DNA of 64,000 nucleotides from Bacillota bacterium (GTDB taxonomy: Bacteria > Bacillota > Clostridia > Acetivibrionales > JANLFN01). The translations under genes and the position numbers were made by a program. Location of the stretch: assembly GCA_030705825.1 (NCBI GenBank), contig JAUZPR010000004.1, forward strand, positions 222-64,221, in the 5' to 3' direction. Of this stretch, positions 2,155 through 43,883 are shown one piece after another. Positions within the stretch are counted from its first letter, which is position 1, and each line of letters opens with the position of its first letter. The notes beneath the pieces are model-generated. The model did not search any database, was not told the origin of the DNA, and was given only the letters and a program-made list of their open reading frames with translations.

Positions 2155-4257
2155 ATGAGATATAGAGGATTGAAGTTTAGATTTTCAGTTTTGCTTCTTG
2201 TATTTCTTATTATCTTTTTCACACAGTCATTCGCATTCACAATCTCGGACATACCGGACAATACCATAAAACTTGGTGATGACTTTTTTGACCTAAATTC
2301 CAATGCAATGAACGACCCTGCCGGTACTATTCCAATCCAGTCTCTATTGACACCCGGAATAAACCAGAATAGGGCATACTTTAAAATAGGCGGAAACTGG
2401 TATGACTTATTCAACCTGAATGGAGACCAGACACTTACACCTGAAAATGCAATGACTGCAGACCAGGTAAATGCAATCCAGGGCTTCGGTAAATGGTATA
2501 AAGCCGGTGACGAGGTTGTTGTTTTATCAGACCGTGCAATTAAAGAAATACCAGTATTAAAAGAAATAGCATCCGATAAGGGAACCGAATACGCCTCAAT
2601 TAATTTGCCAAAGCAGGTGAAGGTGGTTCTGGATGACAACAGTACAATTGATGTCGGAGTAACATGGGATGCAGGTACTCCACTGTATAACAAGGATGTT
2701 CCGGGACGTTACCAGTTTTCAGGAACACTCGCTTCAGTTGAAGGTGTTACAAACCCAAATAATTTAAAGCCTTCAATAGAAGTAGAGGTAGTTATACCCA
2801 ATTCTGATCCTAATCCAAACACTACCATGAACACATCATCAGGAACTACACTCTTTGAGTTTGATAACCAATCAGACTGGGTGAGTTCAACATCAGCCAA
2901 TATAGAAATTGATCAGGCAAATTTTGTTTCGGGAACCGCATCCTCCGCATTATCTCCCTCGACACCTATTGCTATTTTAGATGCTACCGGGACTGCCACA
3001 AAGCAATCCTTTTTCCAGGTACAGACCAGCGGTAATATCGGAGACAAATTGAAGGACATGCAGAATATTGAATTCAATATATATGTACCTGATAAAACCA
3101 AATTTGACTATATGGTAATCAAATTTTACACCAATGATTTTCATAGCTGTTTCTATCAGAACGGAATTGGTAATTGGGAGGTTTCTAACGGCTGGAACAA
3201 GATAAGAAGGTCGGTCGGTGATTTCGAATACGTAGATAGTTCAGGAACTGCAGGTGTAAGTCAAATGTCTGCCATGAGCAGCATGAACAGTCTGGTACAA
3301 ACTTCGGACGGCATTCCGGCAGTAAATGATCTCAAGACAAGCATGCAGAAAAGTATAAGCTTATTGAATAATACCATATACAAACAAAAAGCAGGAAAGA
3401 AATCGGCTTTGTTAAGTTCTGCAGCAGCTTCCGGCAGTTCATTCTGGGGCAATATCTACAGTATGGACGTTGACATTGCTTTTACTAATCCTAATTTGCC
3501 AACTGTTAATTTTGACAAAATCGCAATTAATGTTGCCGGTAATGCCAAATTGTTATTTACATTTGATGATTCCTGGTATGATGTAAAACAATATGCAGAG
3601 CCGATATTAACAGCCAACAATTTCAAAGCTACCCTTTGGACTTATAAAGACGGTGTACTTAATGAATCGGGAACAGGACCTTTAAATATTATGAGTGTTT
3701 CAGACATAAATTCTCTTTATGCAAAGGGATGGGATGTAGGCAATCATACCGTCGACCATCCTGATGACATTACTGCACTGTCACCGGAAAATGTAATAAG
3801 TGAATATAGGGATAATCAGACATGGCTTGACCAAAATGGCTGGACCAGAGCTTCGCAGCATGTGTGCTATCCGTCAGGAAGCTACAATGAACAGGTGATA
3901 AATCTTTTGAAGAGCATAGGGGTGAAGTCTGCGAGGACAACAGAATATGGAATTCAACCTACACCGGTATTCAATATGTACCGGCTGAAAATAGTATTTA
4001 TCAGCAGGGATACACTGGTTTCCGATATTGAAAAACAAGTGGATGAAGCCGTTGCAACAGGTTCAACTATAATTTTCATGCTTCACAGGGTGGAAGACAG
4101 TCCAATTATGACAAACGATACTGAAGGTTACAATGCACTAGCTGTTTCTACAGCCAATTTCCAAGCTATTGTAAATTACGTCAAACAGCTGTCGGATGCA
4201 GGTTCCATAAGTGTAGAGACCATCAGCCAGTGGTATAACGAATACATTGGTAACTAA
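2155..4257 (+). CDS. Secreted multidomain polysaccharide deacetylase (C-terminal NodB/CE4 domain).
   Basis: RBS aaaggggg lies upstream of the ATG. The N-terminus has a hydrophobic signal-like segment (LLLVFLIIFFTQSFAF). There is an Ig-like segment (VVLDDNSTIDVGVTWDAGTPLYNKDVPGRYQFSGTL). The C-terminal domain carries the NodB motifs FTFDDSWYD, GNHTVDHPD and CYPSGSY. Confidence 0.8.
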   Translation: MRYRGLKFRFSVLLLVFLIIFFTQSFAFTISDIPDNTIKLGDDFFDLNSNAMNDPAGTIPIQSLLTPGINQNRAYFKIGGNWYDLFNLNGDQTLTPENAMTADQVNAIQGFGKWYKAGDEVVVLSDRAIKEIPVLKEIASDKGTEYASINLPKQVKVVLDDNSTIDVGVTWDAGTPLYNKDVPGRYQFSGTLASVEGVTNPNNLKPSIEVEVVIPNSDPNPNTTMNTSSGTTLFEFDNQSDWVSSTSANIEIDQANFVSGTASSALSPSTPIAILDATGTATKQSFFQVQTSGNIGDKLKDMQNIEFNIYVPDKTKFDYMVIKFYTNDFHSCFYQNGIGNWEVSNGWNKIRRSVGDFEYVDSSGTAGVSQMSAMSSMNSLVQTSDGIPAVNDLKTSMQKSISLLNNTIYKQKAGKKSALLSSAAASGSSFWGNIYSMDVDIAFTNPNLPTVNFDKIAINVAGNAKLLFTFDDSWYDVKQYAEPILTANNFKATLWTYKDGVLNESGTGPLNIMSVSDINSLYAKGWDVGNHTVDHPDDITALSPENVISEYRDNQTWLDQNGWTRASQHVCYPSGSYNEQVINLLKSIGVKSARTTEYGIQPTPVFNMYRLKIVFISRDTLVSDIEKQVDEAVATGSTIIFMLHRVEDSPIMTNDTEGYNALAVSTANFQAIVNYVKQLSDAGSISVETISQWYNEYIGN

Positions 4258-10001: not shown

Positions 10002-10913
10002 TTACGTAAGAATATTTCTGTTCCAGAAATTAACCATACCGGCTGCCTTATCGGTTAAAAGCAAATCTTTTTCGGATATTGCCTGCAATGTGTCAATAAA
10101 AATATTGGGGTTATTACTCAAATAGCAAAATTCCAGTAAAGCCAGGTATGAATTTTCGCTTCTTGGATACTTACTTATAAATGATTTGCATGAAGCATAA
10201 GCACTGTATAATTCCATTAAAATCAATTCATTTTTTATTTTATTAATAAAATATTTTTCTTCAGGCAGATTATCTATTGAGAAAAGGGTATTAAATACTT
10301 TAAATAAACTTTTCCTATTTTCAAAAGTTGCTGTGTTATTAAGTTCTTCCCATTCGATCAAATCCAAATAAGCATCAATCAGCAGCTTACAATTTTTAAT
10401 GTCATTTTGCTTTTTTTGAAATTCATTTTTTCTTTTGCAAAAGTTTTCGTTTGTTTTGCGCATTATATCTGTTATTGCAGCAGAAGAATAATGGACTATC
10501 TCCGGATCTTCATCCAGTAATGCTTTATTTAGAAAAGGTAATATGGTAGTATAATCCTGGTTTATGCAGTTGAAGAATCTTTTCCTTCTTTGTATTGAAT
10601 CTTTAATTTCAAATATTAAGTCTATAGACAAGACATCATTAAAATTAATATTATTCTCATCTGAAATAACAACTTCTGAAAAGGTTGGGTTGATTTCATC
10701 CTCAGCAATTAATTCGCTTGGATCATAGCTTTTATTTTTTGCAAGTATATCTACAGTAAACATCATAATAAGCCCAAAAAACGGTAATGCGGATATTATA
10801 ATAATACGCGGAAGAAAATTATACTTGGCAAATATCTTAATAAAAACAGAATATATTGCGGCTATTAAAAAATTGATTAATAAAGCAAGTATATAAATAT
10901 TCATATTGAACAT
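10002..10913 (-). CDS. pelE: PelE-like membrane-anchored helical-repeat protein.
   Basis: Two N-terminal hydrophobic helices are followed by an all-helical, TPR-like region. The gene lies between PelD-like and PelF-like genes. The alternative ATG at 10904 forms an ATGA overlap with the pelD stop (10901-10903). The assignment rests on position and architecture, not on a diagnostic motif. Confidence 0.55.
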   Translation of the reverse strand: MFNMNIYILALLINFLIAAIYSVFIKIFAKYNFLPRIIIISALPFFGLIMMFTVDILAKNKSYDPSELIAEDEINPTFSEVVISDENNINFNDVLSIDLIFEIKDSIQRRKRFFNCINQDYTTILPFLNKALLDEDPEIVHYSSAAITDIMRKTNENFCKRKNEFQKKQNDIKNCKLLIDAYLDLIEWEELNNTATFENRKSLFKVFNTLFSIDNLPEEKYFINKIKNELILMELYSAYASCKSFISKYPRSENSYLALLEFCYLSNNPNIFIDTLQAISEKDLLLTDKAAGMVNFWNRNILT

Positions 10914-32411: not shown

Positions 32412-33284
32412 ATGGAATTGATAGCTGCTGATGATTGGAAGGACTATGAACTTTTAGATACAGGTGATGGTGAAAGGCTTGAAAGATGGGGAAAGATAAT
32501 TCTCAGGCGGCCCGATCCTCAAATAATATGGCCCCGTGCAGGTGGAGAAAAACTATGGGCCAAGGCTGATGCTCATTATCATAGGAGCCAGAGCGGAGGG
32601 GGCCAGTGGGAGTATATTAACAAGATTCCTGAAAAGTGGACTGTTTCTTATGGTAAGCTCTCATTTAATATAAAACCTACGGATTTTAAACATACAGGAC
32701 TTTTCCCCGAACAGGCTGCCAACTGGAAATGGATAATGGATAAAATCAAATCGTCATCCAAACAGGCAAATATACTCAATCTTTTTGCATATACCGGCGG
32801 CGCAACTGTTGCTGCCGCATATGCCGGTGCCGAGGTTTGTCATGTTGATGCTTCAAAGGGTATGGTAGGCTGGGCCAAGGATAACATTAATCTGTCGGGT
32901 TTGGGAGAAAAGCCGGTTAGATTTATAACCGACGATGTTATCAAGTTCGTTCAAAGGGAAAAAAGAAGAGGACATTTATATGACGGAATAATAATGGACC
33001 CTCCATCCTACGGGAGAGGACCAAAGGGTGAAGTATGGAAAATAGAAGATGCTTTGTATGGGTTTGTTGAAGAATGTGCAGGAATACTGTCTGATAATCC
33101 GCTGTTTTTCCTTATTAATTCATATACGACAGGATTTTCTCCGACAGTGCTTGAAAATGTACTAAAGCTGCTTGCAGGCAGAAAATTCGGAGGTTCGGTA
33201 AGCTGCGGCGAAGTTGGAATCCCCATTACCGCATCAAAGCTAATTTTGCCCTGCGGCATATACGGACGTTGGGAAAAAATATAG
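32412..33284 (+). CDS. Class I SAM-dependent (rRNA-type) methyltransferase.
   Basis: NLFAYTGGATVAAA (SAM motif I), HVDASK and IIMDPPSYGRG (motif IV). The layout resembles RlmI/RlmK-type C5/N2 RNA methyltransferases. Confidence 0.75.
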   Translation: MELIAADDWKDYELLDTGDGERLERWGKIILRRPDPQIIWPRAGGEKLWAKADAHYHRSQSGGGQWEYINKIPEKWTVSYGKLSFNIKPTDFKHTGLFPEQAANWKWIMDKIKSSSKQANILNLFAYTGGATVAAAYAGAEVCHVDASKGMVGWAKDNINLSGLGEKPVRFITDDVIKFVQREKRRGHLYDGIIMDPPSYGRGPKGEVWKIEDALYGFVEECAGILSDNPLFFLINSYTTGFSPTVLENVLKLLAGRKFGGSVSCGEVGIPITASKLILPCGIYGRWEKI

Positions 33285-33286
33285 AA

Positions 33287-33314
33287 GTTCGGAGTTAAGA
33301 GTTCGGAGTTCAGG
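33287..33314 (+). repeat. Four tandem GTTNRGR heptamers (GTTCGGA GTTAAGA GTTCGGA GTTCAGG), the same family as the array at 42449.
   Basis: Read directly. Starts 3 nt after the methyltransferase stop codon. Confidence 0.8.
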
Positions 33315-33479
33315 GTGTTACTTGTAGGGGCGGCTGCCCACAGCCGCCCGTTTAGGATATGGGTATAGGGAACGGCGCCACGTGTTTCTGTATATATCGG
33401 GGCAGATTCCATATCTGCCTGGGTAAAGAACCAGGGTAATAAATTCCCTTCCCACAATGCGATGGGGGAAGGGCCAGGG

Positions 33480-41490: not shown

Positions 41491-41530
41491 AAGCAAGGAA
41501 AAGGTCTCCTTTTTCCTTGCTTTTTATTTT
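41491..41530 (+). terminator. Intrinsic terminator.
   Basis: aagcaaggaaaagg-tct-cctttttccttgctt followed by tttatttttg. Confidence 0.8.
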
Positions 41531-41605: not shown

Positions 41606-42448
41606 ATGAAGACAATTCATACTGAAGATATTATAAAGGCTGTCGAAAAGATTGCCGTAGAAGCAAATTATTATTTGAACAGCGATATATATGAGGCATT
41701 AAACAGAGGATTGGAACAAGAGGAATCGGAAATCGGAAAGGATATTTTAAGCAAGCTCTTAAAAAATGCCGAGATTGCCGGAAAAAGGAATATGGCTATT
41801 TGTCAGGATACAGGTATGGCGGTAATTTTTGCGTCTGTCGGACAGGATGTACATATTAAGGGTGGGAGCCTTACCGATGCAATAAATGAAGGAATACGCA
41901 GAGGATATGGAAAAGGGTATCTCAGAAAATCGGTGGTAAAGGATCCTATAGAAAGAGTAAATACAGGTGATAACACTCCTGCAATCATACATTATGATAT
42001 AGTTGAGGGTGATACACTTAAAATAATCATAGCGCCCAAAGGTTTTGGAAGCGAGAATATGAGCGCACTGAAAATGCTTAAGCCTTCAGATGGTATCGAA
42101 GGTGTTAAGAACTTTATAATCGATACGGTAAATAATGCAGGCCCTAATCCATGCCCACCGATTGTTGTGGGAGTCGGTATCGGGGGAACTATGGAGAAGG
42201 CTGCAATTTTGGCTAAAAAGGCTTTACTGAGGCCTATAGATATAAGAAATGATATAGAATATGTATCGACTCTTGAAAAGGAAATGCTGTCTAAAATCAA
42301 TGATCTGGGTATAGGTCCTTCCGGTCTTGGAGGAAGGGTCACAGCTCTGGCTGTAAATATTGAGGTTTTTCCAACTCACATAGCAGGTCTTCCGGTAGCA
42401 GTGAATATAAACTGCCACGCAACAAGACACGCGGAAGCGGTTTTATAA
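41606..42448 (+). CDS. Fe-S hydro-lyase alpha subunit (class I fumarate hydratase / L(+)-tartrate dehydratase type).
   Basis: [29 protein letters not shown] and [13 protein letters not shown] are signature blocks of the alpha (N-terminal) domain. Confidence 0.85.
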
Positions 42449-42780
42449 GTTAGGAGTTTAGGGTTAGGGGTTTAGAGTTAGGAGTTTAGGGTTAGGGGTT
42501 TAGAGTTAGGAGTTCAGAGTTAGGAGTTCAGAGTTAGGAGTTCAGAGTGCGGAGTTCAGAGCTCAGGGTGGAGAGTTTTCAGAGTTTAATGTTAAGAGTT
42601 TAGAGTTTAAAGTTAAAAGTTAAAAGTTGAAGTTCGGGGTTTATTGTTTAAGATTTGAACCTCAGAATTTTGAACTCCCTACAGCGAACACCGAACTAAT
42701 AGTCTCTGAATCCCAAATCACAAAAGCCGAACCGAAAACTCCGAACCGCGAACTACATACTCTGAACTTGCCAATCTGAA
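42449..42780 (+). repeat. Intercistronic array of degenerate GTTNRGR heptamers (42449 to about 42660), followed by an inverted, complementary array (about 42661-42780).
   Basis: Starts immediately after the alpha-subunit stop codon. The 28-nt unit GTTAGGAGTTTAGGGTTAGGGGTTTAGA occurs twice (42449-42504). The 14-nt unit GTTAGGAGTTCAGA occurs three times (42505-42546). Decaying copies follow. The second half reads as the reverse complement of the same family (TCTGAACT, GAACTCC, CCGAAC). Confidence 0.9.
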
Positions 42781-42795
42781 AAAAGGAGTGTTTTT

Positions 42796-43347
42796 ATGTT
42801 ACATGAGATTAGTTCGCCGCTTACAAAGGAAATGGTAAAGAATTTGAAGGCGGGTGATACTGTAAGAATAAATGGTACTGTATATGCGGCCAGGGATGCT
42901 GCACATAAAAAAATGATTGAGTTGTTAAATAAAGGTATGGAGCTTCCTTTTGATGTTAGAGGACAGATTATATATTACGTCGGACCATGCCCGGAACGCG
43001 AGGGCCAGGTAATAGGTTCGGCCGGTCCTACCACAAGCAGCAGAATGGATGCATATGCACCTGCCTTAATAGAACTTGGACTTTTAGGAATGATTGGAAA
43101 AGGTCTTAGAAACGATAAAGTAATAGAAGCAATGAAAACTCATTCGGCTGTTTACCTTGGAGCCATTGGCGGTGCAGGAGCCCTGACTGCCAATTGTATA
43201 GTCGGTCAGGAAATAATAGCATTTCCGGAACTGGGCCCGGAGGCATTAAGAAAGCTCCAGGTTAAGGATTTCGAGACTGTGGTTATTATAGACAGCTACG
43301 GTACCAATTTGTATGAAATAGGCAGGAAAAAATACAACAGAGCTTAA
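42796..43347 (+). CDS. Fe-S hydro-lyase beta subunit (class I fumarate hydratase / tartrate dehydratase C-terminal domain).
   Basis: RBS AAAGGAG 7 nt upstream. GTVYAARDAAHKK, GPTTSSRMD and GMIGKG are typical of the beta subunit. Confidence 0.85.
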   Translation: MLHEISSPLTKEMVKNLKAGDTVRINGTVYAARDAAHKKMIELLNKGMELPFDVRGQIIYYVGPCPEREGQVIGSAGPTTSSRMDAYAPALIELGLLGMIGKGLRNDKVIEAMKTHSAVYLGAIGGAGALTANCIVGQEIIAFPELGPEALRKLQVKDFETVVIIDSYGTNLYEIGRKKYNRA

Positions 43348-43506: not shown

Positions 43507-43716
43507 ATGTCAAAGGTAACACCTGATATGATAATTTCGGATATTATCAATCTTGATAGAGGAACTATACCGATTTTGCTTAATGCCGGCATGCACTGCC
43601 TGGGGTGTCCGTCATCACAGGGCGAAAGTCTGGAAGAAGCATGTGCTGTTCATGGAATAGATACAGATGAATTGGTTAAACAAATCAACAGTTATCTGGA
43701 AGGCTCAAACAAGTAA
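43507..43716 (+). CDS. DUF1858-type small redox/disulfide protein.
   Basis: RBS TGGAGGTG. ...GMHCLGCPSS..ESLEEAC..HGID... is the characteristic DUF1858 pattern. Confidence 0.7.
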   Translation: MSKVTPDMIISDIINLDRGTIPILLNAGMHCLGCPSSQGESLEEACAVHGIDTDELVKQINSYLEGSNK

Positions 43717-43883
43717 TTAAAATTTTCAATTAACAATAAAAGCTCAAGGTTAAAAGACTTTGGGTTTTTATTTTTTTGCTGTTTGCAAAATGAGTCGAAC
43801 ATTATTGCCAATTTATAAAAAAATATTCGGATAATTGTTAAATTGTTATTGATTTATAGAACGATTCTTTGGTATTATTATGA

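Follow-up and report, generated by a model that had tools for sequence, protein, structure and literature searches.

Heptamer arrays in the fumA–fumB spacer

The genes fumA and fumB, which encode the alpha and beta subunits of a class I fumarate hydratase, were found next to each other on a 64-kb stretch of DNA (here called the window; 37.6% G+C) from contig JAUZPR010000004.1 of a metagenome-assembled genome (MAG) named 'Bacillota bacterium'. As Table 1 shows, the 347-nt spacer between the two genes (42449-42795) was filled by two facing arrays of 7-nt units of the type GTTNRGR. The stop codon of fumA was TAA (42446-42448), and the first unit of the G-rich array sat 0 nt after it, at 42449. 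The exact part of the array read (GTTAGGA GTTTAGG GTTAGGG GTTTAGA) x2, followed by (GTTAGGA GTTCAGA) x3. Together with the degenerate units behind it, the G-rich array comprised about 30 units, from 42449 to about 42660. The original prediction, made on this DNA from its letters, had described an array starting at the first base after the alpha-subunit stop, with this unit order and with decay up to about 42660, and our parse matched that description exactly. The degenerate stretch 42547-42660 showed 72% self-similarity to 42453-42542 and formed the apical part of the hairpin described below. Tandem Repeats Finder reported 42448-42607 with a period of 14 in 11.3 copies (score 160) and also with a period of 7; periods 7 and 14 gave 11-23 copies, and periods 7 and 21 were found at 42581-42628. 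The pattern (GTTNRGR)x4 had 12 matches in the window against 0.00 expected (100 shuffles).

Table 1. Features at and around the fumA–fumB junction, and the second GTTNRGR array of the window.
Feature	Position	Strand	Details
Small array of the same family, 4 units	33287..33314	+	GTTCGGA GTTAAGA GTTCGGA GTTCAGG; starts 2 nt after the stop of the SAM-methyltransferase open reading frame 32412-33284
Terminator-like hairpin upstream of fumA	41491..41522	+	Bounds the inferred transcription unit on its upstream side
fumA, class I fumarate hydratase alpha subunit	41606..42448	+	Pfam PF05681 Fumerase, E 6e-121
Exact G-rich array, 14 units	42449..42546 (98 nt)	+	Perfect higher-order copies, 28-nt x2 and 14-nt x3
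Long imperfect hairpin (predicted), ~315 nt	42454..42769	+	82 long-range pairs
Degenerate G-rich array, ~16 units	42547..42660	+	GTGCGGA ... AGTTAAA AGTTGAA GTTCGGG GTTTATT; increasingly A/T-rich
Second decayed array, ~17 units	42661..42785	- (G-rich strand)	Plus strand reads NCNGAAC; ends just upstream of the fumB Shine-Dalgarno sequence
fumB ribosome-binding site	42784..42798	+	AGGAG 42784-42788, 7-nt spacer, ATG 42796; outside the long hairpin
fumB, fumarate hydratase beta subunit	42796..43347	+	Pfam PF05683 Fumerase_C, E 1e-58
DUF1858 gene	43507-43716	+	Open reading frame
Terminator-like hairpin 3' of the DUF1858 gene	43735..43772	+	Downstream limit of the inferred transcription unit

At 42661 the composition switched: G fell from 0.34 to 0.14, and C rose from 0.05 to 0.30. 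The tetranucleotide GAAC occurred eight times in the 3' part of the spacer against 0.54 expected, spaced by 7 or 14 nt with two 1-nt phase shifts. Because of the composition flip and the eight GAAC at this spacing, the 3' part was taken to be a decayed reverse-complement array of the same heptamers, and the flip into reverse-complement units that had been described at about 42661 was thereby confirmed. The minus-strand G-array ended about 11 nt upstream of the fumB ATG.

Several short motifs had been singled out in the array. At least five Shine-Dalgarno (SD) cores of the sequence AGGAG had been reported, and five were found within 98 nt, at 42452, 42480, 42508, 42522 and 42536, against about 1.1 per kb in the window. 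Their regular facing of CTCC in the other arm did not hold, because the 3' arm contained only two CTCC. The resemblance to telomere units was real in that TTAGGG occurred four times and TTTAGGG twice in the spacer, but it was incidental, a by-product of the unit variants. For a G-quadruplex, the four tracts of three or four G in 42461-42497 (at 42461, 42467, 42489 and 42495) were present; their 18-nt middle loop falls outside the canonical pattern of G3+ tracts separated by 1-7 nt. Tracts of three or more G numbered six across the approximately 30 units.

Two GTTNRGR arrays were present in the 64-kb window, the one in the fumA–fumB spacer and the small one at 33287, which had been noted earlier as a second copy type and proved to consist of four units. 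At 33328-33349, 14 nt after this small array, a perfect G+C-rich stem of 9 bp enclosed a loop of 4 nt, GGGCGGCTG-CCCA-CAGCCGCCC, and was followed by GTTTAGGATAT. Although its U tract was weak, this stem-loop probably terminates the methyltransferase gene.

Predicted hairpin

The arms of the spacer were linked by nine pairs of inverted repeats (I1-I9) of 31-44 nt with 70-81% complementarity, in several alternative registers. For 42440-42800, the RNA of the plus strand folded with a predicted energy of -98.9 kcal/mol (z -2.94) and the DNA of the plus strand with -39.4 kcal/mol (z -3.04), and the RNA of the minus strand had a z of -4.16; all three were below every shuffle. The proposal that the insert could fold into a long imperfect hairpin was thus borne out by prediction. 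The arms folded alone gave -29.8 and -5.3 kcal/mol and the whole element -98.3 kcal/mol, the pairing of the arms with each other adding about -63 kcal/mol. The end of the hairpin had been placed 15 nt before the beta-subunit start, which was not correct: the outermost predicted pair, 42454:42769, lay 6 nt past the fumA stop and 27 nt before the fumB ATG, and it was heptamer-like units that extended to about 42785. In the predicted fold, the probability of being unpaired was 0.70 for the fumA stop and 0.69 for the fumB SD, and 0.21-0.42 for the five AGGAG cores of the array, which were thus mostly paired.

No match to Rfam 15 at E <= 1 was found in 42300-42900, and the only match in the window that reached a gathering score was one tRNA. 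An intrinsic terminator consists of a G+C-rich stem-loop followed directly by a U tract; this combination was absent from the hairpin, which was followed by CUGAAAAAAGGAG. Arrays of protein-binding triplets were also considered. HutP sites have the form UAG-N4-UAG and TRAP sites consist of GAG/UAG every 5-6 nt. Both were rejected, the UAG in the array being spaced alternately by 6 and 8 nt, or by 14 nt, where a constant 7 nt or 5-6 nt would be expected. An open reading frame (ORF) of 50 codons with a TTG start (42627-42779) ran through the 3' arm of the hairpin; it had no Pfam match, lay inside the repeat and is probably spurious.

Fumarase genes and the junction in relatives

The best match of FumA, at 100% identity, was an NCBI protein with the name 'fumarate hydratase [Bacillota bacterium]', itself from a MAG, and its next-nearest matches (74-80% identity) were from Clostridia of the Acetivibrio/Hungateiclostridium group. 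FumA had the C-terminus E-x-V-L-stop in common with relatives, and the FumB N-terminus MLHEISSP aligned with MLYEISAP of one relative (L002). Promoter and terminator scans of the spacer 42449-42795 returned no promoter-like or terminator-like site. Since terminator-like hairpins flank the genes and neither these nor a promoter occurred in the spacer, fumA, fumB and the DUF1858 gene appear to form one transcription unit. The fumarase operon probably still works, since fumB has kept a ribosome-binding site of its own.

Five relatives had the same gene order Spo0A-HU-Usp-fumA-fumB-DUF1858-purA, with fumA–fumB spacers of 28, 32, 78, 82 and 127 nt, and fumB had its own SD in all five. The claim that the spacer of 347 nt is unusually large was therefore upheld, and because the syntenic relatives have 28-127 nt, it represents a lineage-specific expansion. 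No spacer sequence was common to the five relatives, and some carried heptamers of their own. In the closest of the five, L124 (JGI 3300024240), with 80% FumA identity, a CAGTTGA array of 4.7 copies (Tandem Repeats Finder, period 7) lay in the fumA–fumB spacer at 2170-2202, 8 nt after the stop, with the units CAGTGGA CAGTTGA CAATTGA CAGTGGA CAGTTAA. The preceding spacer of L124 contained AATGAAG in 4.9 copies at 1114-1147, 23 nt past the upstream ORF stop, so that both arrays lay within 1.1 kb; heptamer repeats with differing units seem to be common in this lineage. The spacer of another relative (L126) contained a possible remnant, ATTGGGG GTTTAGG. Since one relative has another array and a second a possible remnant, heptamer arrays come and go at the fumA–fumB junction.

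GTTNRGR arrays in other genomes

To follow the family beyond the window, (GTTNRGR)x4 was used as search pattern against one genome per species of GTDB, and all counts given here are among the matches listed. At least 119 stretches from many phyla were found, where about one match would be expected by chance (4^-16 x 2^-8 x 1.2e12 positions). The suggestion of a repeat family with other copies thus holds, both for the array at 33287 and for these genomes. GTTAGGA arrays were found in Nostoc, Rivularia and Calothrix, GTTGAGA and GTTAGGA arrays in Bacteroidales, GTTCAGG and GTTGAGG arrays in Planctomycetota, Verrucomicrobiota and Lentisphaerota, and GTTCGGG arrays in Actinomycetes; Acidobacteriota and a few Clostridia had GTTNRGR arrays as well. 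Arrays were also present in complete isolate genomes, among them those of Nostoc sp. NIES-4103 and Haloimpatiens lingqiaonensis. The 14/28-nt dialect of the window was found in six contigs of a metagenome scan, always as tandem arrays in unrelated contexts.

A long G-array followed by an inverted array recurred in two of these six metagenome contigs (L131 and L127), and the same architecture was seen in a Clostridia MAG (L045), with fold z scores of -9.1 in L131 and -2.9 in L045. In L131 (contig GC 0.44; reverse-complement coordinates), heptamer arrays made up a hairpin of about 330 nt at 1020-1400, its loop short and AT-rich, and on the minus strand, at 10544-10655, an ORF of 875 codons was followed 3 nt past its stop by a 16-unit GTTAGGA array.

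Further arrays were observed in the course of these searches. At least 120 viral contigs from IMG/VR (L133-L252) had (GTTNRGR)x4, and some of them were giant-virus MAGs (GVMAG ids). A reversed-unit control on viral contigs, (GRNTTGR)x4, also gave at least 120 contigs per pattern. By rotation, however, the control pattern matches the GTTNRGR family too; it is therefore uninformative, and no excess of GTTNRGR over other heptamers is claimed. Four GTTCGGA/GTTGGGA arrays lay within 330 nt in CAZYVU010000041.1 (L042, 2547-2878), interrupted by a run of N, which suggests a very long array that the assembler could not resolve. In a 'Rhodothermales' MAG (JBGCEN010000290.1, L010), 12 perfect plant-type telomere units GTTTAGG stood at the start of the contig (1-84) and six more 3 kb further in (2994-3035); these units may be eukaryotic contamination of the bin. 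About 20 GGTTAG hexamers with an inverted CCCTAA run within 100 nt downstream, making a telomere-like inverted pair of TTAGGG-type hexamers, were seen at approximately 3545-3770 of the metagenome contig Ga0209302_10017089 (L128, GC 0.65).

Orientation of the arrays

The position of the arrays relative to genes was analysed for about 130 arrays among the matches listed. ORFs were defined crudely as open frames of at least 120 codons, not as gene-finder calls, and were called identically for both strand readings. Three rules were found. The end of a long ORF fell within -10 to +14 nt of the array start in 40 of 132 cases on the G-rich strand and in 9 of 122 on the C-rich strand (p 2.6e-6); for loci with a GC content of at most 0.5, the figures were 19/63 and 2/60, respectively. 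For about half of the hits, the stop codon was in phase with the T-A/G-A/G of the unit. An ORF start within 60 nt after the array was more frequent on the C-rich strand (41/132) than on the G-rich strand (23/121; p 0.03), and again the loci with a GC content of at most 0.5 showed this (19/63 versus 4/59; p 0.001). Finally, where a reverse-complement array lay within 500 nt of a G-array, it was downstream in 15 cases (13 distinct loci) and upstream in one. The fumA–fumB element conforms to all three rules, with a G-array after the stop of fumA, a minus-strand G-array before the start of fumB, and the two arrays convergent. Polarity from a pristine 5' to a decayed 3' end was examined by comparing the two flanks of 129 arrays for their in-phase unit scores, which did not differ (p 0.92). 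This test therefore lends no support to a model of polar growth toward the gene.

Comparison with known repeat classes

Intergenic G-rich heptamers were described by Rehm et al. 2015 (PMC4692102), with GGGAATC units in Xanthomonas and GGGGAYT units in Nostoc PCC 7120. Their arrays have 2-26 heterogeneous units, 89-93% of those in Xanthomonas are intergenic, and they lie nearer to the 5' neighbouring ORF (28 nt versus 160 nt) (PMC4692102). The same study reported 70-75 convergent inverted pairs per Xanthomonas genome that are capable of forming stem-loops, one array inside an operon between the subunit genes pecE and pecF, and strong variation of length and sequence among close relatives. No regulatory role was found, the cited proposal being that polymerase slippage favours heptamers, and related G-rich heptamers form quadruplexes in vitro (PMC4692102).

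The fumA–fumB arrays resemble this class in being tandem 7-nt repeats of heterogeneous units with a purine/G-rich strand, in being intergenic and inside an operon, and in having the G-rich strand downstream of an ORF on the coding strand or upstream of one on the non-coding strand. Convergent pairs occur in both, as does variation of length and sequence between relatives at the same locus (the CAGTTGA array of L124; spacers of 28-127 nt). The strand asymmetry characteristic of the class was found in the 5' arm of the spacer (G 0.34 / C 0.05), where G3+ tracts were few and the best four had a loop of 18 nt. They differ in their dialect, which is GTTNRGR and not GGGANTN, so that most units lack a G3 tract and quadruplex potential is poor, in their host, a Clostridia-related Bacillota MAG, and in a higher-order periodicity of 14/28 nt. 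They are also contiguous and jointly fill the spacer as a hairpin of about 315 nt. We conclude that the fumA–fumB arrays belong to the described class of intergenic G-rich heptamers, in which the STRR of Calothrix and the TAACTGA repeats of Beggiatoaceae discussed below are also counted, and that the unit dialect and the host lineage are new.

The short tandemly repeated repetitive (STRR) heptanucleotides are likewise tandem arrays, dispersed in non-coding DNA, and Nostoc, Rivularia and Calothrix accounted for many of the (GTTNRGR)x4 matches. GTTNRGR is, however, unlike CCCCAGT, TTGGTCA and CAACAGT, the units of classical STRR, and the host of the fumA–fumB arrays is not a cyanobacterium. STRR heptanucleotides of heterocystous cyanobacteria (Calothrix PCC 7601) are cited in PMC4692102.

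MacGregor 2015 (PMC4679880) describes TAACTGA direct repeats near start codons in Beggiatoaceae, Cyanobacteria and Bacteroidetes. They occur in 2-6 copies, mostly just upstream of start codons and once as an inverted pair, and CsrA, S1 and Csp are proposed as binders, with a role at the RNA level. The likeness to the fumA–fumB arrays lies in the intergenic position a few nucleotides from a gene boundary, the occurrence in unrelated phyla and the AAC/GTT core, since the reverse complement of TAACTGA rotates to GTTATCA. The difference is that the main fumA–fumB array comes after a stop codon and has an inverted array as its partner.

Repetitive extragenic palindromic (REP) sequences and bacterial interspersed mosaic elements (BIMEs) of enterobacteria are imperfect palindromes with a conserved sequence and a length of about 35 nt; hundreds of copies are dispersed, and REP-associated tyrosine transposases (RAYTs) are linked to them. 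In their possible working alone, the fumA–fumB element could be likened to them, being intercistronic, hairpin-forming and inside an operon and perhaps able to stabilise the upstream mRNA segment. It differs in being a tandem 7-nt array whose arms paired in multiple registers; no dispersed copies of the whole or of a palindrome were found in the window or in about 330 fetched loci. With eukaryotic telomeres the element shares its few TTAGGG and TTTAGGG units, but these are scattered among variants at a locus that is internal to a bacterial operon syntenic with relatives and not at the end of a replicon. A full-text literature search with six 14-mers of the GTTNRGR family returned no bacterial report.

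Origin and possible function of the element

The spacer is best explained as two convergent heptamer arrays that were generated by slippage and are tolerated as a pair (probability about 0.6). The original spacer would have been a few tens of nucleotides long, and the arrays would have arisen and grown within it, through slipped-strand mispairing or through an unequal exchange of units of 7, 14 and 28 nt. Recent slippage is indicated because the exact 28-nt x2 and 14-nt x3 duplications adjoin progressively decayed units; the first 14 G-rich units would be recent perfect copies and the approximately 17 units of opposite strand old and decayed. Within the fumA-fumB(-DUF1858) mRNA, the transcribed arrays would pair with each other in several registers, giving a fuzzy hairpin of about 315 nt that loops the insert out, leaving the fumA stop and the SD and AUG of fumB single-stranded near its base. 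As in the relatives, fumB would rely on its own strong SD for translation. Coupling by termination-reinitiation needs overlaps or very short distances (PMC10666635), and the spacers of the relatives would already be too long for it. Because the fumB SD stays outside the hairpin, the element is probably tolerated and largely neutral. An effect of the array on coupling, stability or processing is possible; at most, the hairpin might act as a barrier to 3' exonucleases or a target of RNase III and shift the stability of the fumA segment modestly relative to that of fumB.

Several points weigh against this explanation. Orientation rules as strong as these, found across phyla, hint at selection or a polar mechanism, and neutral slippage leaves them unexplained; the rules themselves rest on ORFs called as open frames of at least 120 codons. 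Because the polarity test was negative, the 5'-to-3' gradient of the fumA–fumB element is not a property of the class. The analysis covered one 64-kb window of the host genome, and we infer transcription through the element, formation of the hairpin in the cell and neutrality alike.

A rival reading takes the element as a selected intercistronic RNA structure, akin to an E. coli REP/BIME hairpin or an RNase III site, that sets the alpha:beta ratio or uncouples translation; the strong orientation rules speak for it. Either the hairpin would shield the fumA segment from 3' exonucleases or cleavage would separate the cistrons. REP-mediated segmental stabilisation of mRNA in the malE-malF operon is a precedent, the hairpin is more stable than every shuffle, starts 6 nt past the stop and leaves the fumB SD free, and an array with an inverted array recurs directly after genes in unrelated genomes. 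We nevertheless consider such selection unlikely. The element is absent in five relatives, in which fumB has its own SD at 28-127 nt, and the subunits should be needed 1:1, so that differential expression would bring no obvious benefit. The pairing of the arms is generic (multi-register, 70-81%) and defines no conserved helix, the old 3' arm cannot have co-evolved with perfect 5' copies of such recent date, and the work of Rehm et al. on related heptamers turned up no regulatory role (PMC4692102).

The density of AGGAG cores, five within 98 nt against a background of about 1.1/kb, and the near absence of start codons inside the array might point to a 30S landing pad or decoy, or to a sponge for a CsrA-type GGA-binding protein, that modulates fumB translation; CsrA, S1 and Csp were proposed for the TAACTGA repeats (PMC4679880). 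This reading of the motifs is very unlikely, given that the cores are mostly paired in the predicted fold and that GTTCAGG, GTTGAGA and GTTCGGG, which belong to the same family, have no AGGAG. Because these members lack it, likeness to an SD is not a property of the GTTNRGR family.

An unclassified MITE/REP-like element had also been suggested (MITE, miniature inverted-repeat transposable element). We abandoned that identity, as no second composite copy was found in the window, which covers 64 kb of the host genome, or in the fetched loci; the sequence behaves as a heptameric simple-sequence repeat of the class treated in PMC4692102 and PMC4679880. Insertion of a mobile element between fumA and fumB would fit the inverted-repeat arms, the absence from relatives and the same-family array at 33287, yet that array is four tandem units and not a composite copy. 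Neither in the window nor in about 330 fetched loci did the 3' arm and centre have a second copy beyond generic heptamer similarity. At 42449 and 42785, neither a target-site duplication nor defined terminal repeats could be seen, higher-order tandem structure of the kind found inside the element typically comes from slippage, and the metagenome matches to the 28-mer dialect were tandem arrays in unrelated contexts only. Insertion is accordingly highly improbable, slightly more so than a role of the SD-like motifs.

Less credible still is a regulatory G-quadruplex or a telomere-like sequence: the G3-4 tracts, the TTAGGG and TTTAGGG units and the in vitro folding of related heptamers (PMC4692102) stand against an 18-nt middle loop, six G3+ tracts in about 30 units, a very stable competing predicted hairpin and a locus that lies within an operon whose surroundings are syntenic with those of relatives. 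An assembly artefact is the least probable explanation, for while the source is a short-read MAG and tandem repeats are prone to collapse or expansion in assembly, the perfect stretch is 98 nt long and flanked by unique diverged units that reads or large k-mers could span, equivalent arrays exist in complete isolate genomes, and the gene ends are intact on both sides.

Significance of the GTTNRGR arrays

A broader proposal, which we think rather improbable, is that GTT-N4 arrays (GTTNRGR, GTTGACA in L124 and GTTATCA) form one cross-phylum class of gene-boundary repeats with constrained orientation. In such a class, the G-rich 5' end may abut stops on the coding strand or starts on the non-coding strand, and pairs may almost always be convergent. 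If this were true, the arrays would be due not to random growth of microsatellites but to a conserved molecular cause, for which polar slippage at the ends of transcription or translation and a conserved binding factor would be candidates, and the paired arrays would be a self-folding intercistronic module setting the alpha:beta output of fumarase.

The result at this locus guards against over-reading, since the spacer holds a microsatellite pair and not a new RNA gene or mobile element. It also extends the rules known for the G-rich heptamers of Xanthomonas and Nostoc to a different unit family, GTTNRGR, which is spread over Cyanobacteria, Bacteroidota, Planctomycetota, Verrucomicrobiota, Acidobacteriota, Actinomycetota and some Clostridia.

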